The notes beneath the pieces were generated by a model. That model worked only from the letters and a program-made list of their open reading frames with translations. It was not told the DNA's origin and did not search any database. 64,000 nt of DNA. Origin: Lingula anatina (taxonomy: Eukaryota; Animalia; Brachiopoda). The position numbers were made by a program, and so were the translations under genes. The stretch covers positions 33,604,001 through 33,668,000 of the forward strand of contig CM120642.1 of assembly GCA_051362555.1 (NCBI GenBank), written 5' to 3'. Shown piece by piece: positions 6,674 through 63,982 of this stretch (within the stretch, counting starts at the first letter, position 1; each line of letters starts with the position of its first letter).

Positions 6674-9600
6674 CTATCGCCTGCCCTGCGCTCCAGATTC
6701 CAGCTTGGGCCGTTTAAAGCAGCCATCTGGCAAGACGTCCTTAATCTGCTGAATATTCTCTACTTGTTCTCGTAGGTGTATAAGATCCAGAGTATACTGT
6801 TCCATTTGCTGCAGCTGAATTAATTGAGCTTTTGAAAGTTCTTTTAATTTCTTATCAATTTCAGCTTCCAACAGTGCTTTATCTGCTTCAGCTAGATTTT
6901 TCTCCAGAATATCCAAACGTGAAGTGTCAATCATTTCTAAATTAGCTGTAATAACAAAAACATTGTATTAAGGTGGAATGTCAGTAAAATGTATGGCAAC
7001 TTAAACAAACAAACATGATATGTTCAATGTGAACACTAACAACTATGTATCACACAACCAGAGAACAAAATAATCATTCATTTTAGTTTCATAAAGGGCA
7101 ATGGAGAGGTTCAGACAGATCATTTTTTTAACATAAAAAATCTGTTAACTGACAAATAATACAGAATAATGCCATTGCCCTTAACTATACCATCACAAAA
7201 TCAGATTTAAAGTGACACAAAGCTCTCTACTAAATGAGGTTGTTGTGCAAAGACTTTGTAAGTCCATGCTTGGTGAGTAAATAGCGAGTCTCACTGACCT
7301 TCTGAAGACTTCCCAATCATCAGTAATTAAGACTTACCTAATTCTGACAGAATGTCGTTAACATCTTTTAGTGCTTTTCCCACTTTGTCTGAAGATTCCT
7401 GAGCACTGGCTTTGGCTCTATCTGCCTTTCTAAGAGCCTGAAAAAGTTTACAACAATGATAAGGAAACTGTTCATTAGTACAGATATCAAGGGAAAAGGG
7501 CAAGTAATAATTGCAAATAGGAAGTATTATAATTATTGGTATTTCTTCAATACTAAAACCATAATACTAAGGTATAATATGTATAAAACACTGCACCCAT
7601 ACTGTCAATTTTTTCACCCCTTTGTACAATCCTAAACCACACTTCAGTTGCCAGTAAATTAATGTTTTATAATCTACCTGGTCTGTGAGATTCTTGTCCA
7701 CATCAGCTTGACCATCAAAGTCCATCAGTTTATCTGCTGCTGCCTTCACATCACCCTCCAAGGCATCTGCTCTATCCCTGGCGGCAGTGGCGGCATTCTT
7801 CGTCTCCTGGGCTTCTCCTAAGATTTTTGTTGCTTCCTACAAACATCAACATGTTCAGATAAATGCACCAAACAAGTTATAAATGTTAAGTATTTCAACA
7901 TTATCAAAAGTTAAAAAAACAAAAACAAACTTCATACTTTTTGCCATACTAATGGCTAATTTAGTAACTTGCTAACAATACTTTGAAAAAGCCCCCTAGT
8001 TACCGTGGCAGCCATTTCAGAAATGTCCTTGGCCTCCAGAGCGAGTTTCTCTGCCAGCGTGGCATTGGCCTCAGCACCACTCAGGGCGTCCCTGGCCTGC
8101 TGTGTCTTCCTGTTCGCCTCGTCCAAGAGGCTCTCGATGTCTGGAATCTTCTTCATGGCTTCCTCCGCCTGCGCCTTGCTACGCTGCACCTGGTCATCAA
8201 AATCTACCAGAAAGAAACAGAATATCAATTATCAAAGTCCTTAATCTTACCACATTTTCTTGACACCTATTATTTTTCACTCGAACCATCTCCCTTTAAA
8301 ATGCTTTGTAAGAAATCTGTTACCCTCTAAACTGATTTCTATCAGATAAAACAACAGTGTTATACAAAAGGGAAGGTATATCTTCCAGTTTGGTTAACTG
8401 TTCAAAACGTGAAACCATACAAAACTGTTTTAATGGTCAGTTTGTGATGACCTCTCATAAACCCACCTTTCAAAATTGCCAAAGTTTTCTGAGCATCCTT
8501 CAGGGTTTTCTCTCCTTTGGCCACGGCGTCTCTGGCCACGGCTCTGGCGGCATCGGCCTCCGCTAACAGCTCATCAGCTATCTAAATGTCACAAGGAGAC
8601 AATTAATATCCCAGAATTATGCCAAGTTTTAATGTCATTACATTTACATCCCAGTAAAGGTATCACAGTGAGGGCTGATACAGCCTACGAGGCATGAACT
8701 TCTCTAAAGACATCATGTGCAGAATTGAAATTGTCCATTTACACTTCCATTCTGTTCAAGAACATTTTGACCCAAGAAGAGTTTTAGTTTATAAGACATG
8801 GACCTTTAATATCTCACATAGCTTCACCACAAGACTCCTGCTATCAAATGTGCAATAACTACAGCTCAAACCTGTCAGCTATACAACATATCTCCCCTAT
8901 CAATAAGTTGACAATGTGGAATATAACCCACATATGCAATGAAGTATTCAATCTAGATCTACCTGTTGTTGCCTGATGCCATCTTGGAGTAGTTCCTCAG
9001 CTGTAGCTCTCTGTTCAGTCACGTCTTTCATCAATTCCTCATTTTCCTTGATCAGTGTCTCAGCATCATCTTTAATACCCGCAGCCTGACAAAGAAAGAC
9101 AACTTGAACGTCCATAACTCCATTACAATAAACAGGACCAATCAAGAAGTCACACATAAGTATATTTACTGGTCAAATTCTAGAGAAACAATTGGTTCAA
9201 AATGAAAACCACTTTAATAATTTTTCACTGAGTTAACTTGGAATAGGCTACGGCCCCATTCAGAATAGGGAACTAATTGGTTGAAGGGTCAAATATGGCG
9301 ACCCACTACAAAGCTTGCTGCCTAATCCACTAATAGACAATGAATAGATATCCCGTGGGGAAGTATTCAAGTGGGTCAGCCATATTTGACCCTCGTACTT
9401 GTTAGTCCCATATTCTGAATGGGGCCTAACAGATACAAATTAATGATAACTTACATCATTTTTGGTGCCAGTGATATTGGTGCGGAGGTCTGGGAGTTTC
9501 AGGTCTGGTAACATCAGAGATCCCGCACTGGTATACAGGTCCAGGGCCTCATTATAGGCATCCACGGCCAGGTCCCGCGCCTGCTTTGACAGCTGCTCGG

Positions 9601-12600: not shown

Positions 12601-15600
12601 ACGTGGATAACATTGGCAGGCTGAAATAACAACGCAGGACTTAATGACAAGTGAAAAAAGAACATTTTTGTGATACTGTTTGTGAAATAAGCAAGTGTTG
12701 TAATTTATTTGTATTACCCAGCAACTGTCTACTAATTTCTGACAATACTCACTGCTGCATTTTGCAAGTTATAACAAGATGCACTTAAGCGGCAGCTTTG
12801 AGATAGAACCTAAATTAAACCAAGTAATCATAATTTTCAGTAACTTAATTCTCCAATTTTTCTGCCTGTTTTTCTCTTTATATGTACATATATTTACTAT
12901 CAAATGGTTTCCTAGCAACTGACCTTTGCAATCCCCCTTTGGAAGTGCTAGGGCATCCCCGTAGTAGCCAGGCAGACAACGGTCACAGTAGAACCCTGCT
13001 GTGTTGTAGATACACTTCAAACACTCTCCTGTTGTGCTGCAATAGAGAAGAAATTGATAAAGCATGGGAATGAAGCTAAACTGAATTGAAATGCTGAAAA
13101 GAAAATAAGGAATATGGTGGAAATGGCAGTAAATGGTAGTTTACATATCAATGCTGATATCTCATCAGTCATCAATTAGAAATCAATCTTTCAAATGCAG
13201 CATTCCCAAAATTTAGATATCTTTACCCACCTGTTGCAGTTGGCCACTGCGTTGGGATCAATATTTTCATTACAGCGACATTTCTGGCACTGTGAGGCAG
13301 GACCATAGCGACCTGTTGGGTCTCCGTAGTATGAGTCTGCACAGTACTCACAGCGGTTGCCTGGCAACAAAGAAATCAGCTTTCATAGTGAACAGATAAA
13401 AAATCACTTTTATACTGAAGTAACATCCTTAAAAATATTAAATACATCTTTCACTTCTAGAAAGATATCAGCAACTATCTGATTTTCTCAGATTTGACCC
13501 TATCTGCTTAAAATACCCAAATAATAAAATTATAATTCAAATACCTAAGAACCAATGTATAAGGTCTGTGTTACCAGCATTTCCTCAAAATATGATTTGT
13601 TGCGAATAACATGATGTGATGTCAAATGTAGATTTTCCTATACTGCACTGTGCTAACATGTCAGCACCATTAGTTTCTTTACTAACATTAACATAATAAA
13701 TATGTAGAGAGGACCGTTCAAAAATGCCTTGTTCCATACCTGCATTCATGTCAATATGATGAATATTATGTCCATGAATTATTTTATCTAGCTCTGTTTC
13801 CATACCTGCATTTGTGTCAATATGATGAATATTACATCCTTGTATTATTTTATCTACCTCTGTTTCCATACCTACATTAATGTCAACATGATGAATATTA
13901 CATCCATGAATTATTTTATCTAGCCCTGTTCCCTACCTGCGTATCCCTCCCTACAGTTAATACAGGCCACCTCTCCGTTCAGTAACTCCACACAGGAGCC
14001 TCCATCTGGACACGGGCAAGGACTGCAATCATTTGGGGTACCAGCCAGCGCGTAACCATAGTAACCAGGTTTACAGACCTCGCAGTTCGTGCCTGCCGTG
14101 TTGTGCTGGCAGATACAGCGACCTGAAATAATCAAATATAACATCAATATAGTCTAAATTTTACAATTAATTCTTTAATCAAAGGATCAGAAAATGAATA
14201 AATTTCCTCAGAAAATGGCCACTGATGGTGCATATGAAGATGACTTGGATAGCCACATGATGTGGACAGAACCCACTGAATGCAAAGTGATAAATCATTA
14301 ACAGATTCAAGTTTCATTAGAGAAAACTCAAAGGCATTAAGTCTTGGTCATGCAATTCCTTTTTTTATCATAATCTTTCATAATCAAAACATACTTTTGT
14401 TACATGAAAAATGTAACCATTTTATATACTCTACTCACATGTAATACACACATAAACTCATGGTTTTCAGCAAGCTACAAAACACAGCCAATTTAGGACA
14501 AAATCAACAAAGTTCAAATGGCTGTAAATAAGATTTTATGACCAGATATCAGAGTTGACTGACCTGTGTTGACCTCGCAGGTGTCTGAGTGGTTGTTACA
14601 GTTACAGGGGATACAGCGTGCATAGGGTCCGCCACCAGGTGGATCCCTGTGGTATCCCGGCTCACAGGACTCGCAGAACTGGCCGACGTATCCTGTGGGA
14701 CAGGTACACTGCTCTACCCAGGGGGCAGGGTCCCCGAAACTGCCACGCCGCGCTGACACCAACTTGACATTATCCAGGAATCCAACTCCTAGAAATATCA
14801 CAGAGAGAAAATGGGGGTTATATACTGGGCAGAGGGTAATACCGTAGGGGGGCAGTGTGTGTTTGTTCTATCATATCTTACTGTCGTTTTTATGCAAATT
14901 GGGTCAAAATTATGGTTTACATCTGAAAGATTTTAAGAAAAAATGAAAAAAGTTCTATTAATTTAGATTTGTAAAGCAGCACATCAGCAAATTTGTGACA
15001 GAAAAACATCCTTTCCGTACATCACACAAACGCCATGTTCATATCATCTAATTCTATCTACCCCTATGTTTTAGAAATACAAGTTTTTTTACTTTAAAAA
15101 AAATTGTAACAATCACTTATAATTTTAAACAAGAGCTACTGTATCTCTTACCCTGTGATTGATAGGTGCCTCGAAGTCTCATGGATGTTAAATTAGCCAG
15201 CATTCCTCTGAAATCAAGACTTGTTAGGCGGGGTGTCCACTGGTAACGCGGGTGTTCATTCAGCACAAACCTGTACTCCTGGTTGATGTTCCTGGGCAGT
15301 GGATTCCCCTGAGCAAAGATAGGTGCGGAGACTGTCTGACCATTGCCCTCTAACACTATGTCCATGATGGAGGCCCGCGCCCCCTCCTCTCCCACGCGGA
15401 GATTGAACGACAGCAGCTGGTTGTAGCTGTTACTTTGGTCCCCAGAATACTTGGCTACATAACAGGAAAATATTAAATAAAATATCTTCAAGTAATTATT
15501 AATCTCTAACAAATTAAAATTAAAATAAAATAATATAAAATTAAAATGAAATAAATCTAAATTTATAATTCTAAAATTTGCCTTTTAACCTTGACACCCA

Positions 15601-18600: not shown

Positions 18601-21600
18601 AAATTCAGCTATGTGCACCAAGCAAAAAGAACTCTAAGGAGAGATCAATTTCCCTTTTATGACCCAGTTTCATTGACCTAAACAATCACAAATCCCACCC
18701 AGTGTATCTTCATTGGCATGCTTTAGTCTTCTGCTCATTCACATTGGTATATATGGTTAGTGATAGGTGTATAGTCTTTCATAGGTACATAATTATATAT
18801 GGTCTGTAATGGGTATATATGGACTTTAATAGGCTAAAGGCAGAAGAGATGCCTGTGTCTATTGTCTGACACAACTGACAGTCTTTGATGTCCAGTGACT
18901 GAGCAACAGCATCATTGTCACCATGTGATAACAGTGACATAACTAGAAATGAGGTCTATCTATTACAACACTGTATCAAGTATAGGTGTGCCACAGTGTT
19001 AACTGCTATTGGATCTTTTTATCAGTAGACTCTCAGGTCATTAATGCTGCCAATTCACAGTCTGTCTTGGCAAATTTGTTGTGGTGTTTTTTTTCTTCTT
19101 TTTTTAATTCTTTTTTCATCTTTCAGATCTGTGGGATTTCTAAATGCACCGTTAAGTGCCACTTAAGTGAGAGAACACATCAGTGTTTTCATCCTTACTT
19201 GATATCTTCCTGCTGCTTTCATTAATTTTCTGTCTTAATTTATCATCATTTTAAAAGTTGTAGAAAAGTATATAGCAAATCAATAATAGAGTAATCAGAG
19301 TTAAAATTCCTAAGAAATAAAAGACGTGTAATTCATAATGGTTCATAGGAATTGCAAGGAAGGAGATATAATGGGGTTTGGAGGGGGGGGGGGTTAAATA
19401 CCCAGAACACCTTAAAACTGTTACAGCTATTTCACATCAGTGGGATCTGCTGACCTATTTCACTGCACTGGCAAGCCTCACATCTGTCCTGGTCTGTTCT
19501 GCGGAAGTAGTTCTCCTTGCAGCGTTCACAGTGGGGTCCCGCGGTGTTGTCCTGACAGTCTGTGCAATGGCCGCCTCTCCCGGTCCTCTCGTACAGGTCA
19601 CGGTCAAAATAACAGCGGTTTGATTTCCCGTTGCATTCACATCCTAGGAAGAAAAATTACAGTGACAGTAAAATCAATACTTTATAAAACTAATGTTAAA
19701 AAACCTTTTGGTCAAATATCAAATATTCACCATTAAATTTGGCTTTTTCAAAGTATCAACAAAGCTTTTTGAAGTTATATAAAATCTTACAAACATGAAT
19801 ATGTAATCAGTTGTCAAATCACATCATAGTTAGCAGACTGCATATATTTTCAAAACAGTAAAACAAGGTTTTGGTATATTAAACTCTGTGATCCAAGTCT
19901 CTAAAACCAACAGAAACTGCTTGCAATGTATGCACTTAGTGGATGCATTTCTATGCTAAAACACTTGACAACAAGTGCCCTTTTCCATCGAGACCAAGAA
20001 GAGAGTACTTACGCTGCCATCTCCCTCCGTCCCAGTACCAGTAAGCATGAACAGATTGATACAAATACAGCATCAGTAATGCAATAACAATGTTCATGAT
20101 GGACGATGTTACACTGCTACACCCAATCTGCTAACACTCACCACTGTTAATAAACCTACCCCTCTTCAAGGTCAGCTCACAAATTACTGTTTTAAGAACT
20201 TACATAGAGATATCCACTCAAAAGGACCACATTTCACCAAACATAATAAGGAACATGGATTAACACGATATAAGTCTCATTATCCAAGTTCTTGGCAAAG
20301 AAAAGGCTGTCAAGTTGTCTTGATAGATGAATTGTCAATAGACACTCCTTTCTGGAAGTGTTTGAAAACCTCTTTCAAGGCTCTTATCAATGACCATAAA
20401 AGCCTCCTTTACTGGGCCATTTTACTCCACATAGCAGGACCAGCCACTCTCTCCACTGTGTGTGGCTCACATAGGATCAAACTAACCCTCTATAATACAG
20501 TCTCCTGGCCCTGTGCTTACTAATTGCTATTTAACATGTATTTTCTATGGAGACACCAATAGCACTACAGCTTTAATTGGCGTGTCATAAAACATTGGTA
20601 TTGTTTACCTGATCTTGGCCTCCATACAGAGTAAATATCAAATCCATACAGGGCAAATAACAGTATTCCACTAGATACTGAACCATTGACACTGATTGTG
20701 CTTTCTTAAGTATCCATTCATTTGTTAAGAATTAATTAAATAAATCTATAAAAGGACTATTTGTGCTCAGATTTGGCAGATATATGTGAATAAATGTGTA
20801 AGAAATAGGACAGTTTACTCGTGGTATAAACTTTCAGGAATGATAAGACCTTCAGTTTTGCTACAATCCTAACAATTAAAGATAGGATTACACTGTTTAA
20901 GTGACTCATACACAAAGGGAAGATGTTAACTGAACGGGAAATAAACAGTATTTGAAACCTAGACATCAATGGCACATTGACAGTGTTCAGAATGTGGTAG
21001 AGGTGACAAATAGTGATTGTGTTTTGTCATGATGTTGAGATTTTCATTGTGGTAGATACTATGAATGTATGAAAGTTTTTTGTAGGGTATGTCATAACAA
21101 AATTTCCATCTTGTTACCTACAACCTGAAAACTGGGGGTATATTATATTTCTAAAAGGAAATCAAGTACCTATAAATTTCAGTACAATTGCATACAAAGT
21201 TCACTGATACACCGTCAGCCCAAAATCTACATACAAAACATTTTCTAGTTCTCTAAAATGAAATCACATCTCTCAATGAAACTGTAGAACCTTACTTAAT
21301 TTTTAAGTTTAAATCTGTTTATCTTACTTTTGCATTCCCTGGCATCATCGGCGGTGGCTCTCCCCCAGGGAGCATCATGGAACCCAGAGGCACACTCCTC
21401 GCAGTCTGAGCCCGCTGTATTGTGCTCACACAAACACACGGGGACCTCGCCTGCTCCGTTACTAGGCACACACTTACTGGCATGACCGTTACACTTACAC
21501 CTGGAAGATAAGAAAACAAATATTATCATACTATCTCATGAAAACATAAGGCTCAGTCCCAAGAAATTTAGCTCATCTAAAGAACATAGCATCTCATTCA

Positions 21601-26917: not shown

Positions 26918-29900
26918 ATTTCCCTCCCATTTCATCATAAGTCTCCAATAACTGCAGTCTCCAATCAGTCTCTCAGCTACAAAAGCATTCCGTGGCACTT
27001 TAGCCTGATCTGTGACAGAGAGAAACTCTTCAGCTGACATGGAAACCCTTGATATAATACTGAAGTGGGAGTTGCAATATTTCAGTCTAACAAAGCCCAT
27101 CAAGTTTTTCACTTGTTTCCTGTTCAAACACTTCCCAGTGCCTGTAAATAGAGGACAGAAATCGCTGTAAACAGAGGACAGAAATTGCTGTAAACAGAGG
27201 ACAGAAATTGCTGTAAACAGAGGACAGAAATCGCTGTAAACAGAGGACAGAAATTGCTGTAAACAGAGGACAGAAATCCTCTCAATGTCAGGTAACTGTG
27301 GCTGATCACAGTGTGGCTGATTACAATGGCTGACCTCTCAGTGCCAGGACAGTGTATACAGAAACTTACGCCCCCCCCTCACAGTGAGTTAAGTCGTCCT
27401 AGCTTGTGGGCACTTAATCCATGGAGACTCTTGTTAAATGAAATCACTGGTTAACAGACTATCACTCATCCTCCTGTTGCCAACATACTCATATAATCAT
27501 GAGCTTCTTCGTATCATAATTGATGCAACGAAGAGATGGGGCAGGGGAAGTCAGCCCCTGTACAACGTAACTGGATATACTTCCACATATCATTCAGTCT
27601 TGAATAATACACAATACATTCCTTAACATTTTAAACACTGAAAGAATCATATCCAAACACTACCGAGTTGAGGTAATAAAACTTTTCTAGTGATAAACAC
27701 CAAGTTGATGATGTGTTTTTTCAAAGGATGTTATCAACAGAGAAGATCTCCTGGGGACTGGGTTACAATAGAGCACCTGTAACAACAACCTGTAACAGTG
27801 GAAAAAACTTTTAAAAACTGGCCTTGGAACTGTAACAATAGGAGAAACCCCAACAAACAGAGCCACACTGTATGGCTATCATCCCCGCTGAACAACATGT
27901 GATCTCTGTTTTTCCAAACTGTGTGTGTTATCCTCAGATGGTCAGTGTCACAGATACATATAAAATTTATTTCTATTATTTCTTTAAATCTGCCCTGGGG
28001 TCACTATGTGTATGAACCTGTGGTCAACTTATCAATGAGATCTTATCAAAAGGAACAAAACAACAACCCTCAACCAGAGATATTTGTTCTGTGATTCATC
28101 ATTTTTTTAAAACTTCAAAAGTTCTCTGTAGTGGTCCAGTAATGTGGTCCGGCTACCCTGGACACTGCCCAAGACTGCCTGCAGCGGTCACAGGATCACA
28201 CCATCCAGCCGTTTTGTCTTCACTGACCAGACCATGAAATATGTACTACAACCTTTTTTTCTTCTCTGACCATTGTCCGACAGATGCCCTGAGGGCACTG
28301 GACATGGCTGTTACCCAGCTCTGCCCAAACAATACTTGTCTTGTATTACATATATATATCAATTTCAGACATATGAAAATGTGATAACAAGAGACGGTAG
28401 TCTTTAAGCCCCTTTTTTGGCATACACTTACCTTCCACCAACAGCAAAATCAGAGATGGCATAGAAGTAGGATTTGAGAACCTTAGAGTCTCCGAACACT
28501 TCGTCTCCAAAAGTGTTCAGTCTGTTCAAAGTAATCATGATGTCCGTAGCTGTCACCCATTCCTACAATGGAAGATTTTATCAACATGTTTATAAGAGTC
28601 TTAAATAAAATATTGATAGGGCCTACTATTAAACAGTGTTTCTAGAAATGGCTGAAATAAAGATTTCATGAAAGCAGTAAACATCGAGATAATTTATTAC
28701 TTCAGGGGACATTAAATAAAATAAATAAAAAAAGTTCTATCTTACTTTCAGTTTATGGAGGAAATTTATTGCACATATCTTGGTTTCCATCACTTTTTTC
28801 TCCCAAACATTTGACACCCATATGACAGTGTGTTATCTGGAGGCCATATACTTTTACTAGGCCAGTCATTATCATTCAGTAACACAGCTATATGGTTGCT
28901 CTGATTATATGGTCTTATAATAAATTATTATCTTAAATGGGATGAAGATTATAGAGGGAATTTTAAAGTGCAGATCTTGTCAAGGGACTGTTTAATAAAA
29001 CCTGCCAATCACACTGGGTTAAAAGGCTGAAGTTTGAACAAAAAGCTGTTAAAATGAAAAAAGACCTTCCCGTTACTTTTCCATGCTTTGTGTTTTATGC
29101 CTCTCATTCAGCAGTGAAAATTTCACCCCATTAGGAAGTTTTATGATGCCTGTACAGTCATTCACCTCAAACGCCCCTTGAATTAGGCATATAATAAATG
29201 ACCCAGGCATGCTCACAATACTGAGCTTTTGACACAAACTGAAATTAAATTCAGTCAATTTTTTTTTTACTTTTCTTTTTTAGGCAGGGGTTCAAGACTT
29301 GGAATGCAGATCATCTTGGACATAATGATCATGGGGACTTTTGCCTCAGTTATTGATTAAAAAATTTTAACTGTAATAAACAATAAACAAAATGCGACCT
29401 CACTCTACCTGTGCACCATAAATAAAGTGATGCAACTTCAATATAGTTTTAAAGACTGAGTAGAGAGTGATTCCTCATATGGACAGAAAATGAATTCTAG
29501 CAGAGTTCTCAGGATACGTTGCTCTGAAGTGGGGATACAGATTGTCTGATGTTTAAATATATGTGGTCATATTATCATGTTATTAACAAGTTTGTGGCAG
29601 CTCAGTGGTTTCTGTGTCGCTGAGAGGTTCTAAATTATCTGGCAGACAACCGACTTAAGAGTACTGACAACCATTACAACTATTTAAGGAAGCGCTGAAG
29701 TGGGGAGCAATTCCGTGACTAGCATTCATTTTTTTCTTCGACTTAAAGAGTTCATTATAACTGGCACTTTAGTAGGGGGGAAAAACCTCCTAAATTTTTT
29801 CTCAAACAGCCCATTTTGTACATCTCAAAAATTAACAGGTACTTCAAAGTGATTAAATCATGGTGACAGTTGTAAAAACTGAAAATCCTGAGAACATAGC

Positions 29901-32900
29901 TTGAAATTTCTCACCACATTTAGACCATATGCTAAAAAAAATCAAATTGAAGACTGAAAATCATGAAATCAGGCATAAGCCTGAAAACTTTCAACCATGC
30001 ACATTTCATTTTTGGCAGCATCCTGAACAAAGATCTGTACAGTTTTTCTCCATACTTTCTCCTCTCCAAGCCATAAAATGCTGGCAGAATGCACCAACAT
30101 AACCTATCACTTACTTGCAGCACTGGGCTAGAATCAAAACTTGTGGCACTCGGTCGTCCCTCAAGAGTACTGAAAGCCACGTTTCCTCCTGTCAGAGGAG
30201 AGATATCGCTGTATTCTTCCGTACATATTGCCTTAGTCTCGTCTGCTCGTGTAATGATTTCCCGCCTGCGTTTGCGATATGTCTGTTCACACGAGGCACT
30301 GTAATACTGATAGGGAAGAAAGCGACCATCCTGCGATGTTCGTTTGTAAATGGTGAAACTCTCTGGCCTTGGGGAATGGAATTTTAATCTCACGTATGTG
30401 ATATCATATGATTTTCCTGAAAAAAAGGAAACAGAAAAATTCATTTAAGTATTTAATTTTGCACTTGGGAAATTACATTTCTATGTATTGTAAACACAGG
30501 CACAGGTTTTACCCACTGGTTGAACTGATCATTACAATGCAGGCCACATCTTTCATACATAATAGTAAAGTTGATTATCTGAGGATAACATGTGACCTAC
30601 ATCCAAACTAAATACTAGAAACTTACTCTGTCCAAATGAAAAAAAAAAACCTAAGCTATATCCAGCAGGCATTCACATATAAAACAACTGTTACATTGTG
30701 TGATTTACAACTGATTTTCACTTTTTTATCATAAATCAAGCAAAAGTAAATAATTTATGACAATATTTTGATAATGATGATAATCACATCATATTAGTTG
30801 AAGATAACACAACCAAACTTGTCCCACATATTGATGAAGTTCACAGGTCTTTCCTTTTTTTAACGAACCAGATTTTTTTATCTTTCAGCAGCTATTAACC
30901 ATCAATGAACTGTTGCATTTATGACAGTAACATAGGAAGCATTGGCATATCTAGAGGGACTGCCATTCTGCAAAGTGAAGTGAACCAAACCTCAGCAGAG
31001 ACAACTTAGTTCTATGGAAATACATTCCAGCTGAAACTTGAACATTTTTTCTAATTTGTACAAGAGACTGTAAAAACAAGTTAGTTTGCAGCCATATATA
31101 ATTGACATGTATTTGCCATAAATCTTTACCATGTTTAGTAGCTGACACATTCACATACAACAGAGAAATGTTGACATTTCAAAACCCAGAAAAAAAACAC
31201 TAAAAACTGTTCACACTTTATTACACAGACCCACTTAAATTAAATCCAAAGCATGTACAGAAAACCTTCCCACTGTCTTTGCAATAGAAGAATTCCATAG
31301 ATAAGATAAGAATTACTTCAACGGACATCTTCACTTTTTCATCCTCCTCAGATACAGAGTGTGACCCTGCCATTTTGTTGTAACTGTCAATTATAATCAG
31401 TGACAACAAAGCAGTATGCCGCCAGGGTGACAGCACAGTGCGCCACAGATGTGGAGGTCACAAGTTACCAATAAAAATACACAGTTTACACCGACTTCAA
31501 CTCACATCTTGCTAACTTTATGATCAACCTGCTGTCAAATTGAACGAAAACATTAAATTGCCTGTCAAAAGTATGAAGTTACTTGTTCACAGAAGAAACA
31601 AAGGCTGATAAAATTAGAATGTATTAAGAAGATCATTTTATTCTCTGTGTACTAGTAAATCAATATTACATACAAATGCAAATAATCAATATTTAGGATT
31701 CCACCCCCTTCTCCCCCCCCCATCCCCTCCCTCTCCCAGTCACTGTCAAGTTCGCTCTCCCTGACACCAGAAGTAAACCAGTGTTGAAGGGAGCCAGCTC
31801 CCAACCTAATGTAGCAGAGATTAGAATCACATGGCAGCCATTAGCCAGATGGTCGACTACTTTGTACAGGGCAGGGTCACAACTTAATAGGCACTTTCTA
31901 CTCTCTTCATTTTGTACTGAATTAAAATATGAAGAAAAATACTGACCCTAAGAAGAACAACATTAGCCTGCTAGTGAAGTGCACATGACTGACCCCAACA
32001 CCCATTGCTATAGTTTTCCATGAAATTTATGAGATAAATAGAAAAAAAAACATGCCGGGTCTCAAATAATGTTAAAGTAGCCATTTGAAGAGGATTTCAA
32101 AGAATTCCCAATATTATGGAAGGCATAAAACTGAATAACTTCACAATTTTTATCAATTTTTCCAGATTTGGTGGTAAATTAAAAATTTCATTAGGATATG
32201 TTTTGCCAAAAAGGTAAGGGTTAATTATATGTGTGAAAAGAGAATTGAGATATAACAATGTATTAGCACTTCAAACAGCATAAAATAAAGGGTATGAAAC
32301 TGAAGAAGTTCACCAAATTCTTAAAATTTTACAGATTTGCCAGCAAGTTATCTTATATTGATACATGTGGTTGATAATGACAGAAGAAAGCCAGGTAAAA
32401 TTTTCTTATATTATCCTCAAGGTACAGCATACAGACAAAGCTACTTGCTAACAGGAGCCATGCCATCATTCTGTATGCTAAAGTTGTGGTACAGCTGGTC
32501 AGAAATAGACAGCAAGTCTAAAGGAAGGATACAAGCCAAGGTTTTTTTTCCTCAACACCTCGCCTGCCCGTCTTTATAAGCCAATGGTTTAGAAGCATGA
32601 TAATATGTGAGCCAGAGAAATGCATACAAGTGACTGGGCATTATACCTCCCTTAAAATAACTCATAAAACTTTAACAAATGAACAAAAGCAGGGCAGAAC
32701 TAAATGTAGGTCAGATTTTTTTTTCAAATACTGCACTCAAAACTGTGTTCACTACCCAGTATTTAAATCAAAATAAATCTACTTTCATTAAACTTGTTTA
32801 ATGTTACCTGGTTATACATATGATCTATCAGAGAGTCAGCAATGCTCAAAGAGAACAGGGATAAAGTGTCACTGAGGTCATGTCATTTCTCCTCTGATGT

Positions 32901-49200: not shown

Positions 49201-51899
49201 GGTGGCCGGGTGTTATATGTATATTCTTTATCCCAGTATTTACCCACCACGTATTTATCAATTTGTCCGGTCTATTCCCCAGTGTTCAAACTACCAGGTT
49301 AAGTACCTCTATTTTCCACCAGATCAAGTTCAAGATGGTATTGTGGTTCAGTCGGAGACTGCTTGGTTAACACTACATGTTTGCTGAGCATACAATACCA
49401 AGTTTTCCTGTCCACAATACCAGTAGTGTACCAAATCACAATGTACCGACCACAAACACTGCGACATGAATGAGATATACATACACGCTTCATGGGAGAA
49501 AGGGTCGCTGCATAAAGTGTCTATGAGCGAGGAGGTTTTTAACACAAAAAATAGTGTGATTAAGGAAAAGGGTGGCAGCTTACGCACTACAAGTGTCTGT
49601 CTGGGCATGAAGTTCATACCTGAGAAGTTTTGAATTAAAACATAGCTCAGCCCTGTGTTCAGGCTGTTTATAAACATCCCTGCAGCAAAGCAATTCTGAA
49701 TTTTCAGGTTAATTTCCATCTTTCTATAGATTCTGAGTTATCATCAACTCTAAACACTGAAAATTGATCCACGAGGGTGATTTATTTACTAACAGGCCTA
49801 AGGCAAGGAATTCCTTCTGAAGCTGTATGAATGAAAGAAGTTCTGTACAGAAATAATATAGCCAGCTCCGTGCTCTATAATAATGCTCATTCTACTATGG
49901 CAATTACCATTTATCATTTATTCCAGCATATTGCATGTACTTTCACATTATTCTGTGACCTTGATATCCATCTACAAGCATTTCCTCTCAATTAGCAATA
50001 ACCAGATAGATCTTTGCCTGAAGAGAAGGAGGAAAATGCTGTCACTCCCACAGTACAAAAAGTTTGAAGTGGAGTCTTTCAAATTTATTTCAAAATAGGA
50101 CAGAATGCCACAGAAAATATGTGCCAATGTCAAGTCTTGATAGTGGAAGCAGCTGAGAGCTATGGAATATCAAGAAAGATATAATGTGACAAAAAGTTAT
50201 GTAAATGTAGAACACAGCTACAATGTGAGATTTATTTTTAACACAGACTTGGGTGCAAACTAGTACTGTGGCTTCCTTCAGCAATGACTTCTCTTGTTTG
50301 GGGACCACAGCCATGTAAACTGGCCACACTGGAGAAGAACATAAAACTAAATCCCACAACATCACATCTTACAACAATACCATTGTCTGTTTGTATTTTA
50401 AGCCAAGATGGATCTTTGTACATGAAATAATTTAAACACAAGTCTGTGGTGTTATTGGAACCACATTGTTTTCTAACCCTCCCCACATATCAAAAGATTA
50501 CCAGTAATCACATTTACGTCTCAAATGCCATAAGACAGGCCACAATCTCTGACTGCACCGGACATGAAAACCTGTCCACATGAGGCATCTTCCTCCATGG
50601 AGGAATAAAAGGAGCTGCTTATAACCCCATCCACATGGGGACCATTAGATCTGACTGAAATGTGCATAAAATATGGGCTGCGGAAAAATGTACTGGATCT
50701 AACAAGCTGTGAAAATATTTCTAGCCACTTGAAGCCAGGAACTTGTGGGAACCTCCCTCTCGGCCCCAGACAAAGAAACACAGAGAACAGCTGTGGGGGG
50801 AAGCCAGAGAGAACGGATTTTTAAATGGTATATTGTGCTAACTTTCACAGTTGAAGCTTTCTAACTCAGATCTAACATGTAAACAGAATGCAAACATGTG
50901 ACTGCACAACTCAAAGCTTATTATTACTGCTTGACATCTTGGCTGGAAATTTTGACTAAAAGTATTTCATGATTATTGAAAACATTTTTTTGAAGAAGTC
51001 TTACACTTGAATCTCACTGTTCAATAGGGTTGAATTTCAGATGAATTTAAAAGCTAAAAACAAAAAATCTTGATGTCTATGCTAGTGCCATGCTGGTTGC
51101 ATTTCTCTTATTTATGCAAGCAATGTGATTTCCACTTTCGGTGTGATTTTCTGTGTAAAAACAATTTAGTGTCAACAAACCTCTCCAAGCAAGACATAGT
51201 CAACACTGGGATACATTAGGTTGATCTCCTCCACTTTACTTCAGGGTGGGTATTGTTATATAAGAACACATGCAACAGAATTTAACCTCATTGGACTCCT
51301 TCTTTTTCATTTTCATGAATGAATATACTAGTATGTATGTTTTAATTAAAGGTTCCCTGATATTCACTTATGTAATTTTTCTTTTGTTTTACTTTCTGTC
51401 TCAACTTTCTGGAATATATTTAACATTAAACAGAAGTACACCATGCATCAAAGCTATAGTAAAACACTGAGCTCAGTTTATAAAATATTATTGACTTACC
51501 AAGATGAAGTGTAAGGTTGACGCTGTTAGGATACTGAATTCCTTCATTCATGGTTTCTGATTGCCACCAAGTCATGTTATCGTTGTTGTTAAAATCCGTC
51601 AAATATTCAGGAGGGTGTCGCTTGCTGGTGTCTCTAGCGTCGCATACTTCGCAGTATCTTTTATTACCAGCAACAAGAGTCTGTACACAGAATTCCGTCG
51701 GACCGGGGAGTCCGCAAGTGTTGGTGGCGACGACTTTCCGTCCGTAGGCAGCGTTCACGAACTCAGGAACACAGCGCTGAGGGCGACCGTCATCGGTGTA
51801 GCAGCTACTTCGCCGTGCCGGTTCCTGAGCTTCTGCTGAGTGTAGCCATAAAGCACATATAAGGGATATCACAAGAACAGGTTGCTTGTAAAGTTTCAT
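6674..51899 (-). CDS. LAMC1: Laminin subunit gamma-1 (LanB2/lam-2 type), 27 coding exons, ~1627 aa
   Basis: Exons 5'->3': 51500-51899, 30115-30416, 28432-28562, 21328-21500, 19455-19643, 17907-18024, 17404-17511, 16437-16573, 15823-15945, 15152-15454, 14564-14788, 13937-14122, 13231-13360, 12924-13036, 12459-12620, 11916-12068, 11485-11625, 10960-11154, 10311-10620 (acceptor may be at 10602), 9958-10095, 9455-9632, 8963-9085, 8467-8581, 8004-8203, 7678-7836, 7338-7437, 6674-6945. All GT-AG; total 4884 nt, in frame. Signal peptide, LN domain ([39 protein letters not shown]), LE repeats, L4 domain, nidogen-binding NIDPNAV, coiled coil, tail [12 protein letters not shown]. Confidence 0.96.
9252..9426. 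mobile_element. 175-bp MITE (Harbinger-like), copy 1
   Basis: TIR GGCCCCATTCAGAATAGGGAACTAA...TTAGTCCCATATTCTGAATGGGGCC; homologous to 53297-53471. Confidence 0.8.
13731..13940. repeat. ~66-bp tandem repeat (3 units) derived from the laminin exon 12/intron 12 junction
   Basis: Unit (minus strand) GCAGGTATGGAAACAGAGCTAGATAAAATAATTCATGGA...; the first unit overlaps the true donor GCAG|GTAGGG. Confidence 0.85.
16791..16879 (+). repeat. 33-bp tandem repeat (~2.7 units) with CTCF-like motifs
   Basis: TGATCACCAGAGGGCAGCAACTGGCTAACACAT units starting at 16791, 16824, 16857. Confidence 0.85.
20013..20097 (-). CDS. LAMC1: Putative alternative first (signal-peptide) exon of laminin gamma in intron 4, giving an LN-less gamma-2-like isoform
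   Basis: ATG at 20097 (context CCATCATGA; in-frame TAG 12 codons upstream). Encodes [28 protein letters not shown]. 85 nt with phase-1 donor C|GTAAGT, matching the phase-1 acceptor of exon 5 at 19643 (joined R-CECNGKS). Confidence 0.7.
26058..26100. repeat. (CA)n microsatellite
   Basis: Direct reading. Confidence 0.95.
27142..27278. repeat. 23-bp minisatellite, 6 units
   Basis: CTGTAAACAGAGGACAGAAATYG x6 (first unit CTGTAAATAG). Confidence 0.92.
33049..33601. mobile_element. ~550-bp non-autonomous DNA transposon (Harbinger-like) in laminin intron 1
   Basis: TIR TACCCCATTCACACTA...TAGTGTGAACGGGGTA; internal GCGTTCACACT repeats; CpG-rich compared with flanks. Confidence 0.7.
43960..44230. 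mobile_element. Degenerate Harbinger-like MITE
   Basis: TAA-GGCTGCGTTCACA...TGTGAACACACCC imperfect TIRs; CpG-rich interior. Confidence 0.45.
44484..44623. repeat. ~140-bp dispersed repeat, copy 1 (copy 2 at 58137-58287)
   Basis: ACATTTTAAACCCAGTTTCCTCTCTC...GAAGCCTCCTCTTTGAATTGAAG...TTATCTTTTAACTTTTTA near-identical at both sites. Confidence 0.85.
45374..48958 (-). mobile_element. Decayed, internally deleted Sola3-like DNA transposon
   Basis: TTAA at 45370-45373 and 48959-48962. Termini GAGCTTGTCCACGAGAGAACCAG and (reverse complement) GTGTGTGTCCACGAGAAAACCAG, with further imperfect subterminal symmetry. Minus-strand frameshifted remnants ([32 protein letters not shown]|gtaag, [20 protein letters not shown]...MKMR) resemble Sola3-type transposase ends; this match is from recall. 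Confidence 0.7.
46218..46274. repeat. (TA)n microsatellite within the Sola3-like element
   Basis: Direct reading. Confidence 0.95.
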
Positions 51900-52851
51900 A
51901 GTTCTTACGATCGTAGAAGTCCTTGCACTTGGTTTCTCCTTCCGACACCTTCTACAATCTACCGCCATCCCCTCAACCAAGGTGGACTTCTCGCAATGCC
52001 TCACGAGAATGTCGCTCTGGTGCCGAGAGAGGGCGCACAAGACGCACCTGGTTGGTCGTTTCTCAATCGAAGGAACATGCAAAACGCATTGGGTAGTGCA
52101 GAAAGAATGATTCATCATCTAATTGAGAGAGTGCACCACAGGAATGTTGAGAAATGAAATATGTTTAAGTGAACGCACATTGTGTGCTCTTCAAACAATT
52201 GTTAACATTTATAGTATTTTTATAAATTGGTTTGCAATGAGCTGGATGTTCAATTAAAATTCTTTACAATTTAAAGAGAAATTAGCATTTAAAAACGTCT
52301 ATTCTGATTTGTGATTTAAATTCTTACAAATGAAAGTAATATTACCTAACATCGTACCAGTGCCACAATGAAAATAACCCGATTCAGAACAACAATAAAA
52401 AATAAAATATGTACTTTAAATTATAGAGCTTAGAGACATGTCAGATTACAGAAAATACAATACTATAACAAAGAGCAAGAATATTTTGGAAGTTTTGTAT
52501 CCAATTTTTCACATTAAAGCAGCTGCATAATACAAAGAAAAATTAATTGCACTCCAGTAAAAACAGTGTCCCACTTCAGTGGCAATAGTTTTATTTCAGA
52601 AATGTTACAGAAATAAGTGAAATAACTTGAATTCCTTGGTTGCGCGTGAATGCATGCCATCATTCTCACAGCCATATATGTAGTAATTTGTCACGATTCC
52701 TTGAGGCAAATAGAAGCAAATGTGAAAATGCCCATTGCATTTGTTGTGCTGCATGTTATTTAATAACACTGTCTCTACTAACCTATTCACTGCTTTTCCC
52801 TCTCCTCTAATGCAATTTGTGTCCTGGACAAGATTACACTTTCACCTCTTA

Positions 52852-55212: not shown

Positions 55213-56881
55213 CTAACACGATGGCTGTGGCTGACAAACCGGGAGAGCATCAGCCTCTATGGACAAGAAGCCAGATGTCCTGTACTTGTCCCTGATATAG
55301 TCGGCGAGGTCAGTCTTGCCGACCACTGGGTCTTCCAGAGCCGTCACCAGGGTGGATAGATCCTCAAACGGGTTACGGCGAAACCACTTCACCATTGCCT
55401 GGTATGCTCTCTCCACCATGTTATTGGGGAAGTCTGCCTCTAACACTTCCAGATCTGCATCACTCAAACCATCTGCCAGGAAACAAAATATAGTCATTTT
55501 CACTTATCTAAGAATAATTGAGAGATATTACAAGTCTTTCTCCAAACATTTAGTGTAATTTTCAAAGCTAAATTTGAATATTTAATTTTTCAGAAGTAAA
55601 AAAAAAATGCAGAAGTGAGTTGGTTTCCAGGCAGAATGTTTTTTTTCTTTAAATATTCAGTATAAAAATAAAATTAAACTAATACCTAGTGCAAGTGAGG
55701 TGCTTGATTATTGAGTAATTACTATTTATAAGACTGATATTCATGTACAATTACAATGCCTGCCCGGATGAAAAAGAAGAGTAACATCATAAACCTAAAG
55801 CAGAAGGCTAACAGAAAAACAATGAAATGTCAATTTTTGAACATAGTGGAAATCAATTCATTACTAGAAGTTCATGTTATTTAGTTCTGCAATTCATGCA
55901 AAGCAAATTTTCTACAGAGTTTTAGCTGTGATGTGAAGGAATCGCTTACTCTTCAGCTTTCTCATGAACATCTTCCATTTATGTCCCAGATTGCTTGAAA
56001 GATGTGCAAATACATCTCTCATTAAGTTTCCTGGAATTTAACAAAATCATAAATAAACATTCATTCAATTTATTACAGAGAACATTCTTTTACTGTTTTA
56101 CTGCAAAATATTTTGAGTAACCTAAACCAATTCATCACAAAACATCAATTTTTTACTGATTTTTCACATCACAAGTTCCAACATAAAAACAACATAATTC
56201 AACTTTTAACAACCTTAATACTTCATCAGTTGTTGTTTTACCTTTCATTTCTTCCAAGCTTGTGTTAGATGATCTTTTGCGCAAGGTGCCCCTCTCCTGT
56301 CCATGAAGTACCTCACTCTTGGTTTGAGGGGGAGGGGTGGGAGGTATGGTGATGGACACTTCACCATTGTTGTTATTATTCAACACTGGGTCCATCTCGT
56401 TTGGCAATTGAAATCGCAATTTAGGCTTTTCCTTCTTTTTGGCACCATTTGTTTGTTTTCTATGGTGGACTTCAGCTGGTTCTTGATCTCCAGAATCTTC
56501 ACTGCAGGGAGGCTGTTTCTCCTGGCTGCTCTGTGGGCACCTGAAATATATGGTGTCATAACATGAGATGAAGCAAATTATACCAAGTGAAGTGTCATAC
56601 GCACAATTAAAAGAAGCAGATTAAATTGCTGTAGATTTGCATTAAAATGTGCAGTATTTCCACAATCAAATAAAAAGTTACTAAACAATGCCAATTTCAC
56701 CCATAACGACACATCACAATCATGCTACAGACAAAAATAGGTACTTTTTCTAGACAACACTATGGGAATATTTGGTACTTTCTCTACAAGTTACAGACTG
56801 AAGCTCTTGCTAGTAATTTTGGGAGCAGCATGAAAATTATAAAGTTTCAAATAACAGTGATTCTTCTGGCACTGAAATACA

Positions 56882-56914
<33 letters not shown>

Positions 56915-59900
56915 TTATTTTATTATTTGTTGTTTTTTTTTTTGCCAAATGCACCTATCAAATTACTTCAGAAAATTTAAAAAAAACTTAAGTAAATGAT
57001 TTATACAAGTTTGATTACTTGTCAATGATTTGATAAAGAGGGTTAATCCAGTGGGCAATGAACACAGCAATCTTTTGTGAACCCAAACATAAAAACCACT
57101 ACCTTTCTTCGTCATCAGTTTTATTCTTTCTAAACCAACAGCAGGCGGCAAAAAGAAGACCTATGATAACTAAACCAGCACCAATACCAACACCACCCAT
57201 TGTACCATGCAGGGACTCTACAGAAATAAACAACAAACATAGCATATAAAGACAAAAATAAACATCCAATACATCACATTAATACGCACTATTTGTATAA
57301 GACCAGGTCTATGTTAGATCCCTGAGCGACTATTCCCAGACCCTATTGTACTAACTGTGGATCGATTTATCTCCAAGAAAATTCTTGCTAAATTGCTATC
57401 AACTTATGAGGGTCAAATGTCTGTCACGCCTACTGACTCTGCTTGAGGGTAATTAACTATCATTTTGCAGATTCATTAGGCTTGCCAGACATCTAAGTCA
57501 CATAAGCTGAAAGCAATTAAATGAGAAACCCCTTGGAAATGGATCGATCATGTTAGATCGATCTAGGCACGGGAACCCAGTCCTAGTGTGCCACCTGACA
57601 TAGTAATTACACCATCCAAACATTGAGGGGTAATTAAAATATTTTTATTAACTCAAAAGTTATTTGGTGATGCATTTTAGGACATTCTCGGGTCAAAATA
57701 GACCTAGTCTGAATGCGGTTATACATGAAACCTTCCATCTTTTCATGCACCTACCATAACAACTGATTTGTGCAGCTAAATTATGACCAAAGGAAAACAT
57801 TCAATACATTAAAATATATAACTGTGATAAAAGCATATAATATCCATGCAATTAAAAGACAACAATGACAATGTTTCCCAAAATTTCCAACAACATTACT
57901 GACAATGAAGTCATATCTTAGGCCGCATTCCCATAGATTTTAGATCAATCTATCCCTGTGGGTAGTCTCACTAGATTACTGTCAGATAATCCGGCTTAAA
58001 TGTCCATCCCGCCTACTACAAGCTGTAAGGGGGTAATTAACTTTCGTGCCCGGGCGGCTGACAGCTATTTAGCGTGAACCCCCAGGGAGTTAGGTCGATC
58101 TAAAGTAGATCGATCTAATCTCTGGAAATGGGGTCTAACATTTTAAACCCAATTTCCTCTCTCAATTGTGTTAAGGTTTGTGTAGAAACATAAATTTTAG
58201 CAATGAAGCCTCCTCTTTGAATTGAAGTTTATAACAAGGTATAAGCAAAAGCAGATCAATTATCTTTTAACTTTTTATTTTTTAACTTCGATCTAATCTC
58301 TGGGAATGGGGTCTTAGAATTAACTGACAATGACAATGTATGCATCTCAATATTTGGAGTAAACACAAAAGTTAACAATGTAGCAATTACATAAAAAAGC
58401 AAAAAACATAGTTACTACAAACAAGGCAAGTTTTTATAACATGGATTATCAAAGAAGTGATCTTTTTTATATTCAATTACAGGTAGTACATCCAACCATG
58501 TGTCATGTTAATACAAACCTGGTCTCTCAAGAACACTGTCAATGGTAAAGTTGGTAATATTGTTTCTAACAGTACCTAGGTCAAAGCCAAAGGTTGTTGT
58601 GTGCCCCTCAACACCAGGGTCAACTGTCACACCAGAGGTAGCAGCTGAAATATATGGGGACAGTAATCAATGGTAAATTCTTATAAGTATTTTTAGGATA
58701 TGTAAAATATTAACAAGGAATCTTTGTAATTTGTTCAGATAAGTAAATATGCAATGTTAGGCAGCACTCCTTGTAAAGCATGCATTTATAAGTGTAGGTA
58801 GAGCATGTCAAAAAGAATATTTTACATTTGTAGAAATAAGCCTTTACAAAGAAAAGATTTCTCAAATCCATCGAATTAATACAGGAAAAATTTTAACCAC
58901 AGAGGCTAATTAACTGACTGTATTCCTCTTATAAAAGCTTTTGATTGGGATTTGCCATTACTGTTGACTTGCTTTTGGTTGTTACTGGCAACAGCCCTGC
59001 TCTTTGCTTATGGTTGCTATTGACAACTGACCTGCCTCTTGCTTATGGTTGCTATTGACAACAGACCTACTCCCTAGTTACCTGTGTGATCAGTGATGTT
59101 GCCATCAGTGGGACAAGGGCCACATACAACATCAGAAAATCTGCTCCCTTCTTTCATTTCAACCAGGCCCAGGGCAGAGCAGTCTGTGTGCTTCCTGCAC
59201 TTCTGAGTAAGAGACACGTGATCTGAGTAGTAACCATGGCGACATTTCTCACACTGAGTGTTATTCTCTCTACTGCCTGAAATTGAGTTAAACTCTGAAT
59301 ATGATAAAAAGTGTTTTTTCTTCATACACATTTCTGCTTCTTTAGGAAATAAGGAACAAGAAAAGTTTGCAGAATCTGATGAAGGTTATGAGTGATGCCA
59401 TGAAAATAAAAATGACCTAATGCATCATTCAGCAATCAGAGGTTTGGAACCTTATGTATTTCATAAAATATACACTTTTTTTACATTTACAACCAGATTT
59501 ACCTTGGTAGCCAAACCATACATCAACATATTCCACTGAAATGTGAAAACCATATTCCTACATGGTGTTCCAATGTACTAAGAACTGGCCCAGGTACCCA
59601 AATATATCTATATAGGCAAATATGAAACCTTTATGCATACCTAACTGTTTGACACCAAATCCTATACGACAAGGGGTGTGCCTCTGGCAGTGACCCCAGT
59701 GCTGCCATCTATAATAACCTTCCACACAGCCACACACCCTGTCCTTTGTTACTGTACAATTCGCCACCTGCTCCTCAGCATAGCCATGACACCCACCACT
59801 GCAGAGCTGACAGGAAGGCGCTGCATTATACTGTGTGGAAAAAGTCAGTTGTGGAACACACGGCTCACAACGTGTGGGCGTGGTCTCGGTGCAGTCAGCT

Positions 59901-61752
59901 AGATGATGTGTCCCTGGCTGGCAGGCTTCACAGCCTAGTCCTGAGGCAGTCTTGTAATGCTCTACTTCTGCAACCTGAAAAAAGGGATTTTAATGAATGT
60001 AGGCCTATTTATTAACAACTTGCACTCCTTATAACTCCAGGTTTAAAGATAGATGTGGAGAAGATGTTCATTTGCTTACACAGCTCTGTTAAAGAGAGTA
60101 AGGGACCATTCACAATAAATTTATTCCACCTAGCTTATGTCCACTAAGGGTGCATTCCCAGAGATTAAGATTGATCCAGAGATTTAGATTTTGATTTAGA
60201 TCGACCTAACTCCCTGGTGGTTCACACTAAATTGCATTCAGCCGAGCGCCCACCATAGTTACAGCTTACAGCTTTTAGTAGGCGGGACAGACGCTTAAGC
60301 CGGCTAAGCTGACAGTAATCTAGTGAGGCTCCCCACAGGGATAGATCAATCTAAAATCTATGGAAATGGGGAAGACTACTGGGGCACTCACTATATTGTT
60401 ACAAATGTAATCAGTTTAACAGACTAATTAACACACCTCCTCTTGTTTTCGACATACTCATATAATCACTAGCTTTGTTATATTCTACTTAACACCAGGA
60501 GGAGACATGTTAGTCTGGTAATTTGATTGCATTCAGCCATGAGGAGACGTGTTGGTCTAGTAATTTGATTGCATTTACCATGGAGTTAATGCACGCGATT
60601 GGTGGAGAAAATTTATCGTGAACATTCCCTAGAGTTTTGCCTAAAGAAGTCTGAAACCATGCAGGAGATACTGTTTATGTGTAGGGGTCCATGTTCCACC
60701 CTACCCAGGTTCTTCTAATATTTTACCTGTCACTGATGCATGGGAGAGGGAATATAACTACAAACTCACATCTTCAGTCCCAAGTCTAAAAGTCCTTTGT
60801 TAAGTCCAAGCATTCAGCCTTTATACACATTATCTCCAGAGAATCTATCTGCATGCCACAGTGGCAGCAACTCATTTAAATACTAATTGCAATGCAATAG
60901 ATAAAAATTGAGGGCTTCTACTTTTAAGTTATATCAGTTCTACTTATCAGGTATACCTATACAGAGGATGATAAATATTCATTCAAGACTGAAGTAAGGT
61001 GAATGATAATATGCTGACTGATTACAATTATAAACATAATATGTAAATGAGTGATTTCATCACATGCATTTAGTGGACCTTAACATATGGCAAAAGGATG
61101 ACAGAACTGCCAACTTGTATTATTCTTATGGAGAAGGGGGCATCTCGATATTCCTAAACTTCATTGGTCTGAAGGTTCATTGGTCTGAAAAATTGTAGCA
61201 TTTTCATCAGTTTTTTTTTTTTTTTTAATCAAGGGTTCATTGGTCCAATGGTTTTATAGTGAACATCTGGACCAATGAACCTTCAGACTATTGCTACAGC
61301 CCCATTCATATATCATTTAGACAACAAACTGCCCAGTTATTGAGTAAAGCTATTTTAATCAGTGTTTATTCGAGCGTGCCTCGGCATGCCCGTTTAATTT
61401 AACATGACAAGATGATGTAATGAATTGAATCACCTGTATTGCATAGAACAGAAGATATAAAGCCATTATTCTGTGTTCTATTTCTACTTTGAAAGATAAA
61501 TTAGCCCGACTCACGTAACTTCAATCCTTCAAAAAGTACGATTTGGATGATTGAACACATGATTTGCTACTGCACATTCAACGTCTTTTTCACGCATATC
61601 TACGTTTAAAACTTAATTACAGAAGCAAATTTTGCACATTAATTAGGCCTACAACATAACTGAAATCTACTTACCAATAAATTGCTTACTTCGAAGAAAA
61701 GAAGGATAAAGAATGAGTAGGGACGTTTCAATAAAAAACCGAAGGCAGCCAT
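55213..61752 (-). CDS. TNF receptor superfamily member with 4 CRDs, TM and death domain (DR6/TNFRSF21- or p75-like architecture), ~495 aa
   Basis: Exons 61675-61752 (signal; alternative donor at 61690, upstream in-frame ATG 61758), 59641-59974 (CEACQPGTH...CTVTKDRVCGCVEGYY...CQRHTPCRIGFGV), 59082-59276 (NTQCEKCRHGYYSD...CRKHTDC...SDVVC), 58519-58644 (Thr-rich stalk), 57103-57217 (TM GGVGIGAGLVIIGLLFAACCWF), 56242-56540, 55950-56030 (LSSNLGHKWKMFMRKL), 55213-55472 (ERAYQAMVKW...LVTALE...DLADYI). Phases consistent; total 1488 nt. Confidence 0.9.
56882..56913. repeat. (TTA)n microsatellite
   Basis: Direct reading. Confidence 0.9.
57335..57570. mobile_element. MITE-like repeat (related copy at ~62076-62255)
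   Basis: Shared CAGACCCTATYGTACTAACTGTGGATCGATTTATCTCCAAG...CCCTTGGARATGGA; internal inverted symmetry. Confidence 0.6.
57921..58313. mobile_element. Harbinger-like MITE with a 151-bp insertion and duplicated right end
   Basis: TTA-GGCCGCATTCCCATAGATT...AATCTCTGGGAATGGGGTC-TTA; 27-bp direct repeat at 58110-58136 and 58288-58314; inverted relative at 60148-60371. Confidence 0.7.
60148..60371. mobile_element. Inverted copy of the 57921 MITE family in TNFR intron 1
   Basis: TAGATCGACCTAACTCCCTGG...GTAGGCGGGA...TGACAGTAATCTAGTGAG...CACAGGGATAGAT is the reverse complement of 57930-58105. Confidence 0.75.
61372..61391. promoter_or_regulatory. p53/p63-family response-element-like site in TNFR intron 1
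   Basis: GAGCGTGCCT CGGCATGCCC: two adjacent RRRCWWGYYY half-sites, 18/20 match, no spacer. Confidence 0.5.
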
Positions 61753-63924: not shown

Positions 63925-63982
63925 ATGAAGACGTTGTTTTTGGCTGTTGTGATTTTTGCCGCTTTCTCTGTAAGCTCTACAG
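63925..63982 (+). CDS. First (signal-peptide) exon of an unidentified secreted or membrane protein gene continuing beyond the window
   Basis: AAAATG start, MKTLFLAVVIFAAFSVSST, phase-1 donor AG|GTAAGA; TATAAA at ~63760 and TGACGT at ~63703 upstream. Confidence 0.65.

Follow-up and report, generated by a model that had tools for sequence, protein, structure and literature searches.

Background

Can a single invertebrate gene make two laminin gamma chains, one with and one without the LN domain? The question is raised by a short segment in intron 4 of the laminin gamma gene of the brachiopod Lingula anatina. The LN-less gamma design has so far been credited to vertebrates, and two reviews give bilaterian invertebrates one gamma subunit and ascribe altered laminin domain patterns to vertebrate duplications (PMC3308698, PMC9788559). 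A search of listings and abstracts, which took in few subscription papers, returned no description of a shortened gamma chain from an invertebrate, though one may have been published. The original prediction held that the segment, 85 nt on the minus strand, is a hidden signal-peptide exon from which the gene could make a second, non-polymerising chain. Here, we analysed this segment, called exon X in the following, in the window (the whole stretch of 64,000 nt of genomic DNA, to which all coordinates refer) and compared it with laminin gamma loci, proteins and RNA from other sources.

Results

The laminin gamma gene of Lingula anatina

The gene occupies positions 6674–51968 on the minus strand, as do all its features named below, and consists of 27 coding exons with 1650 codons. 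When the named Lingula proteins P0002 and P0006 were mapped onto the window, 1642 of the 1650 residues were identical, and exon 5 alone matches L. anatina laminin gamma-1 (P0002) with 98% identity. As marks of a laminin gamma chain we took the LN domain, LE repeats, the L4 domain, the coiled coil and closeness to named gamma chains; the Pfam domains of P0002 (with the LN domain at residues 66–300), the protein match and the tree all identify the gene as such. The coding part of exon 1 (51500–51968) holds the signal peptide and the start of the LN domain, which continues in exon 2 (30115–30416) and exon 3 (28432–28562), and exon 4 (21328–21500) codes for the first LE module; these four exons belong to the long form only. 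Exon 5 (19455–19643) codes for the second LE module, and its phase-1 acceptor is common to the long and the predicted short form. Exon 13 (13231–13360) contains a NIDPNAV loop, also present in a bird gamma-1 chain, which we take to be the nidogen site.

Some further features of the region may be mentioned. Intron 1 (30417–51499) measures 21,083 nt, half of the total intron sequence of the gene. In an older annotation two overlapping partial gene copies are given on one contig (XP_013412469.1, XP_013412467.1); since the window holds one complete gene, this pair is probably an assembly duplication. At 55216–59989 on the minus strand lie an exon coding for a TNFR cysteine-rich domain (PF00020, E 1e-12) and another one with a weak match to the Death domain (PF00531, below cutoff), and judged by these domains a death-receptor gene is likely to be located just upstream of the laminin gamma gene.

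A candidate first exon in intron 4

Intron 4, the host of exon X, is 1684 nt long and in phase 1. Exon X itself, the coding part of a likely alternative first exon, is located at 20013–20097 and translates, as had been predicted, into 28 residues plus one base: an ATG with A at -3 (position 20100), a signal-peptide-like stretch and an aromatic stub of ten residues with a phase-1 end. The predicted signal peptide (20044–20097) comprises 18 residues, has a hydrophobic core with a mean Kyte-Doolittle value of 3.54 and ends with V-H-A, thus passing the -3/-1 rule of our own heuristic, which was used in place of SignalP. Within the stub, sequence comparison with other loci delimits a conserved motif W-x-G-x-x-W-[QE], followed by one base and then GT (20011–20034). 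The donor GTAAGT (20007–20012), preceded by C, had been called a consensus donor. Its phase 1 is, as predicted, also that of the exon 5 acceptor at 19643, but for this gene the donor is weak: the score of 3.84 bits is equal to the lowest leave-one-out score among the 26 real donors of the gene, none of which has C at -1. Joined to exons 5–27, exon X opens a frame of 1320 aa, the expected length. In the resulting protein LN and LE1, both encoded by exons 1–4, would be missing, and the NIDPNAV loop of exon 13 would be retained.

An in-frame TAG is found at 20131–20133, 12 codons 5' of the ATG, again as predicted, and between 20098 and 20800 there is no acceptor above 3.6 bits. Together, the upstream stop and the lack of a good upstream acceptor make exon X read as a first exon, with a signal peptide (by the heuristic) in frame with the downstream exons, and rule out a cassette exon, for which an acceptor within 700 nt was considered. 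The region 20098–20400 may hold a 5' UTR and an internal promoter; its nearest ATG upstream of exon X is at 20205 and it contains no TATA match. The unspliced frame of exon X, 48 aa long, had no match among database proteins of 85–2000 aa (two candidates), which is weak evidence against exon X.

Comparison with shuffled introns

In a scan for start exons, an ATG, a hydrophobic 8-mer, agreement with the -3/-1 rule, a donor and a matched phase were demanded at three stringencies, the strict thresholds being set on exon X itself. Across the 40,342 nt of sense intron sequence, this heuristic has exon X as its only phase-matched hit, whichever of the three stringencies is used. In 2000 shuffles of intron 4, matches appeared in 0, 1 and 49 cases from strict to loose, and shuffling all introns yielded a mean of 0, 0.017 and 0.45 matches. 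The motif is rare, too. W[DN]G occurs once in the 127,996 six-frame codons of the window, namely inside exon X, and W-x-G-x-x-W-x-N-GT was obtained in 2 of 5000 shuffles of intron 4. The scan gave one other medium-stringency match, a signal-peptide exon with a strong donor at 63925–63982 on the plus strand, with which a neighbouring gene probably starts.

Counterparts in the homologous intron of other loci

A scan of metagenome contigs yielded 106 confirmed matches, of which 80 were kept. In 74 of these 80 loci an AG is located two bases before the first Cys codon of the exon 5 module, so that the position of intron 4 is widely shared. Leaving aside four loci that have no intron at this position and 34 lacking the upstream exon, 42 introns could be searched with the pattern W-x-G-x-x-W-x-N-GT, which contains the Lingula residues and register alone but was fixed after three matches were known. 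It is present in 3 of the 42 introns in sense and in none in antisense orientation, compared to a mean of 0.03 and a maximum of 1 in 1000 shuffles.

The three loci, L026, L028 and L031, have WTGMKWE, WTGQQWQ and WTGSQWQ, respectively, where Lingula has WDGGRWQ, each followed by one base and GT. An ATG in frame and a hydrophobic stretch precede the motif in all three, and the GT is in phase 1 and in the same register as in Lingula. To the Lingula peptide they are 42, 29 and 29% identical. The last 14 residues of the Lingula and L026 peptides align without a gap and share S-V-x-x-Y-x-x-W-x-G-x-x-W. In a tree computed with FastTree on BLAST-projected rows, to which no formal tests were applied, L026 clusters with Ciona and Styela (support 1.000), and L028 and L031 are placed in an arthropod clade (0.993). 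The search for a similar exon in the same intron of other animals, proposed with the original prediction, was thus successful in one tunicate-like and two arthropod-like loci. The N-terminus, described there as unusual, is indeed aromatic, but as a signature conserved across loci it is no oddity of Lingula. The sharing of one register by Spiralia, Ecdysozoa and Chordata leads us to infer inheritance from the bilaterian ancestor followed by losses, with the deuterostome side represented by one locus (L026).

No recognisable counterpart was found in 29 of the 35 introns of at least 200 nt; these 29 are mostly redundant annelid-like loci, together with three bivalve-like ones and one vertebrate gamma-1. 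A weak signal-like frame in the bivalve-like locus L064 was not counted, as the motif is absent there. Among the annelid-like loci (L008–L025, L049–L079) two distinct gamma-like sequence types occur (L019/L020 versus L049 in the tree), which suggests, at the sequence level, a gamma gene duplication; both types lack a counterpart of exon X. Three ant-like loci (L039:4610, L040:3193 and L043:9335) retain a short-start exon with a decayed motif in which the tryptophans are lost. All four conserved exons have non-optimal donors: GTAAGT after C at window position 20013, GTTGGT after G (L026:8372), GTATTC after T (L028:9909) and GTACAT after T (L031:4827).

Short gamma chains in arthropods

A search among proteins shorter than 1448 aa gave 238 matches. 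Among the 120 of them that were listed, at least 17 are arthropod chains without LN in which the exon 5 module is preceded by a signal-like start and W[DN]G; they cover beetles, bugs, hymenopterans, a mayfly, a locust, a stick insect and a cladoceran. Models named laminin subunit gamma-1 isoform X2 (e.g. XP_063244920.1), which measure 1306–1322 aa where they are full-length, lack the LN domain and come from the same gene as X1; as database models they rest on annotation only. The stick insect Bacillus rossius has an isoform X1 of 1619 aa that includes LN and an isoform X2 of 1318 aa that does not; from the exon 5 module onward the two are identical, and such long/short pairs exist also in two Euwallacea species. 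In the literature searched we found no publication on these X2 models.

Like these chains, the exon X form would join a signal peptide and a W[DN]G stub to the same module. Exon X has the arthropod-type combination of same intron, phase 1, signal peptide and W[DNT]G stub; unlike in Lingula, the insect stub WDGxxPW[FY]SxS is three residues longer, and its second tryptophan is spaced differently. HMMs built from 18 arthropod N-termini do not single out exon X, which ranked 817th of 2663 and 228th of 1154 segments. An AlphaFold model of the short form of Sida, based on an alignment of 20 rows, is uninformative on the stub, with pLDDT below 50 for residues 22–34.

Other stubs exist on the same start module, in arthropod-like chains of 1321–1326 aa and an Armadillidium model (P0054, P0059, P0230). 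The end of LE1, encoded by exon 4 (21328–21500), reads [FL][YH][NH]DxPW in long forms and is similar to the insect stub WDGxxPW. One idea, suggested by this similarity, is that exon X may derive from a partial copy of exon 4.

RNA from Lingula

RNA evidence was drawn from four of nine runs carrying the species label, with 5–20% of each run sampled and the tissue unstated. The junction of exons 4 and 5 is covered by 153, 0, 7 and 80 reads in runs X1, X4, X7 and X3, in total 240, and only 8 reads were placed at all in X4. Reads spanning 20013 to 19643, the evidence proposed for use of exon X, did not appear: their number is 0 in the sampled parts of the four runs, where the exon 4–5 junction is the sole joint. 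In the two deep runs, X1 and X3, taken together, the number of distinct read starts limits the use of exon X to about 2.7% at most (95% bound). The depth on exon X is 1.9 in X1 and 2.8 in X3, against 210 and 122 on exon 5, which corresponds to about one and two fragments, respectively, as in other intron bins. No read reaches the exon X donor, whose bin contains 4 and 12 letters where one read reaching 20013 gives 16, and the read gap from there to exon 5 may be due to chance (P about 0.09). Over 20098–20400 the depth is 0–3.5, no higher than in other intron bins, and no cluster of transcription starts was seen upstream of exon X in these runs. This counts against an abundant use of exon X in the sampled runs and is compatible with a rare or restricted one.

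Discussion

Alternative explanations

The combined results are best explained by exon X being an ancient alternative first exon, used at a low level or in a restricted manner, for a secreted gamma chain without the LN domain and LE1; we assign to this reading a probability of roughly 0.85. That exon X is a chance sequence in an AT-rich intron is very improbable. With loose criteria a match does turn up in a third of the shuffled intron sets, and RNA support is absent, but under medium criteria a single one of 2000 shuffles of intron 4 sufficed, and three further loci carry the motif in the corresponding intron. This recurrence could itself be the result of convergence, if LN-less starts had arisen repeatedly in a conserved phase-1 intron. 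An acceptor was available in the large majority of loci, the stubs vary (WDGxxPW in insects, others in P0059, P0054 and P0230), the distribution is patchy and the arthropod HMMs miss exon X. Nevertheless, we consider convergence of the tryptophan motif improbable, since W, G, W, [QE] and GT are spaced identically in the brachiopod, the tunicate-like and two arthropod-like loci, and since the last 14 residues of Lingula and L026 align without a gap. Of the two origins offered by the original prediction, an ancestral isoform or a convergent solution, the shared intron, phase and tryptophan register fit the ancestral one better.

A third explanation accepts the age of exon X and regards it as a relic in Lingula, now silent or nearly so. 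It would account for the missing junction reads and the background depth in the four partly sampled runs, for a donor in the weakest class of the gene, for the exon apparently having been lost from annelid-like and bivalve-like loci and for the motif decay in the ant loci. Against this stands the integrity of the exon: the context of the ATG, the hydrophobic core, the pattern for cleavage, the two tryptophans and the phase are all intact, which is not expected of an unselected intron, and the RNA sampled is a small share of the four runs. We therefore regard a relic as unlikely, though the least so of these three explanations. For the alternative first exon speak also its counterparts with the same intron, phase and tryptophan register in tunicate-like and arthropod-like loci, and the annotated long/short pairs from one gene in insects.

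A possible mode of action

An internal promoter upstream of 20097, active in few cells or stages, would start the short transcript, in which exon X would be spliced to exon 5. The signal peptide would be cleaved after residue 18, and the short chain could pair with alpha and beta chains through its intact coiled coil. From laminin biology one would expect a trimer with such a gamma chain not to polymerise by itself. Lacking LN but retaining the NIDPNAV loop, the short form would remain attached to nidogen and at the same time thin or cap the network. We take the tryptophan stub to be under selection, and it is likely to be a binding or capping element. Two papers support the general premises: chains without LN are unable to polymerise alone, the LEb3 module of gamma-1 binds nidogen, and a lower stiffness is expected when polymerising and non-polymerising laminins are mixed (PMC11260871, PMC8388930).

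A precedent exists in the LAMA3 gene, whose two promoters yield a long chain and one without LN; its forms LAMA3A and LAMA3B resemble the situation proposed here in that the LN-less chain begins at an internal first exon and exists alongside the full-length one (PMC8388930, PMC9788559). The difference is that LAMA3 codes for a vertebrate alpha chain, whereas exon X belongs to a gamma chain and to invertebrates from both branches of the bilaterian split.

Relation to vertebrate LAMC2

Database proteins (the P0248 cluster and P0300) bear out the statement that LAMC2 lacks the LN domain and begins at the homologous module. The likeness to the predicted short form goes further: in mammals and the coelacanth a signal peptide and a short stub precede the same LE module. 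Two genomic-looking LAMC2 ORFs (P0224, P0281) diverge from the mRNA-type sequences just before this module, as would be expected if an intron lay there. In the coelacanth model P0300 the first Cys is preceded by TFRWHS, with R-W and with W three residues before the Cys as in Lingula; this register match is one data point, and the mammalian LAMC2 sequences examined have no W in the Lingula register. LAMC2 differs from the exon X form in being a separate gene and a shorter chain (1189 aa with 67 Cys, compared to 83 Cys in an insect short form), and in lacking the W-x-G-x-x-W motif.

In the tree, LAMC2 groups with vertebrate gamma-1 and gamma-3 (FastTree support 1.000), and the sister of this vertebrate clade is the tunicate group including L026 (0.969). 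An orthologue of LAMC2 should be a separate gene within the vertebrate gamma clade, but exon X sits in the single gamma gene seen in Lingula. As LAMC2 lies inside the vertebrate clade, exon X is not a LAMC2 orthologue. LAMC2 exon 1 may plausibly descend from exon X. We lean slightly towards a history in which the bilaterian ancestor made both gamma chains, the polymerising and the non-polymerising one, from one gene and, after the genome duplications of the vertebrates, the long start remained with LAMC1 and LAMC3 and the internal exon with LAMC2.

Conclusion

If exon X is what we propose, invertebrates would have a built-in tuning of basement-membrane networks by an LN-less gamma isoform. It could then also be tested whether LAMC2 originated when ancient isoforms were split between genes. 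If it did, the gamma chain of laminin-332 would be an ancestral isoform that became fixed, and the W-x-G-x-x-W stub would be a binding site that has gone unrecognised and is over 500 million years old.
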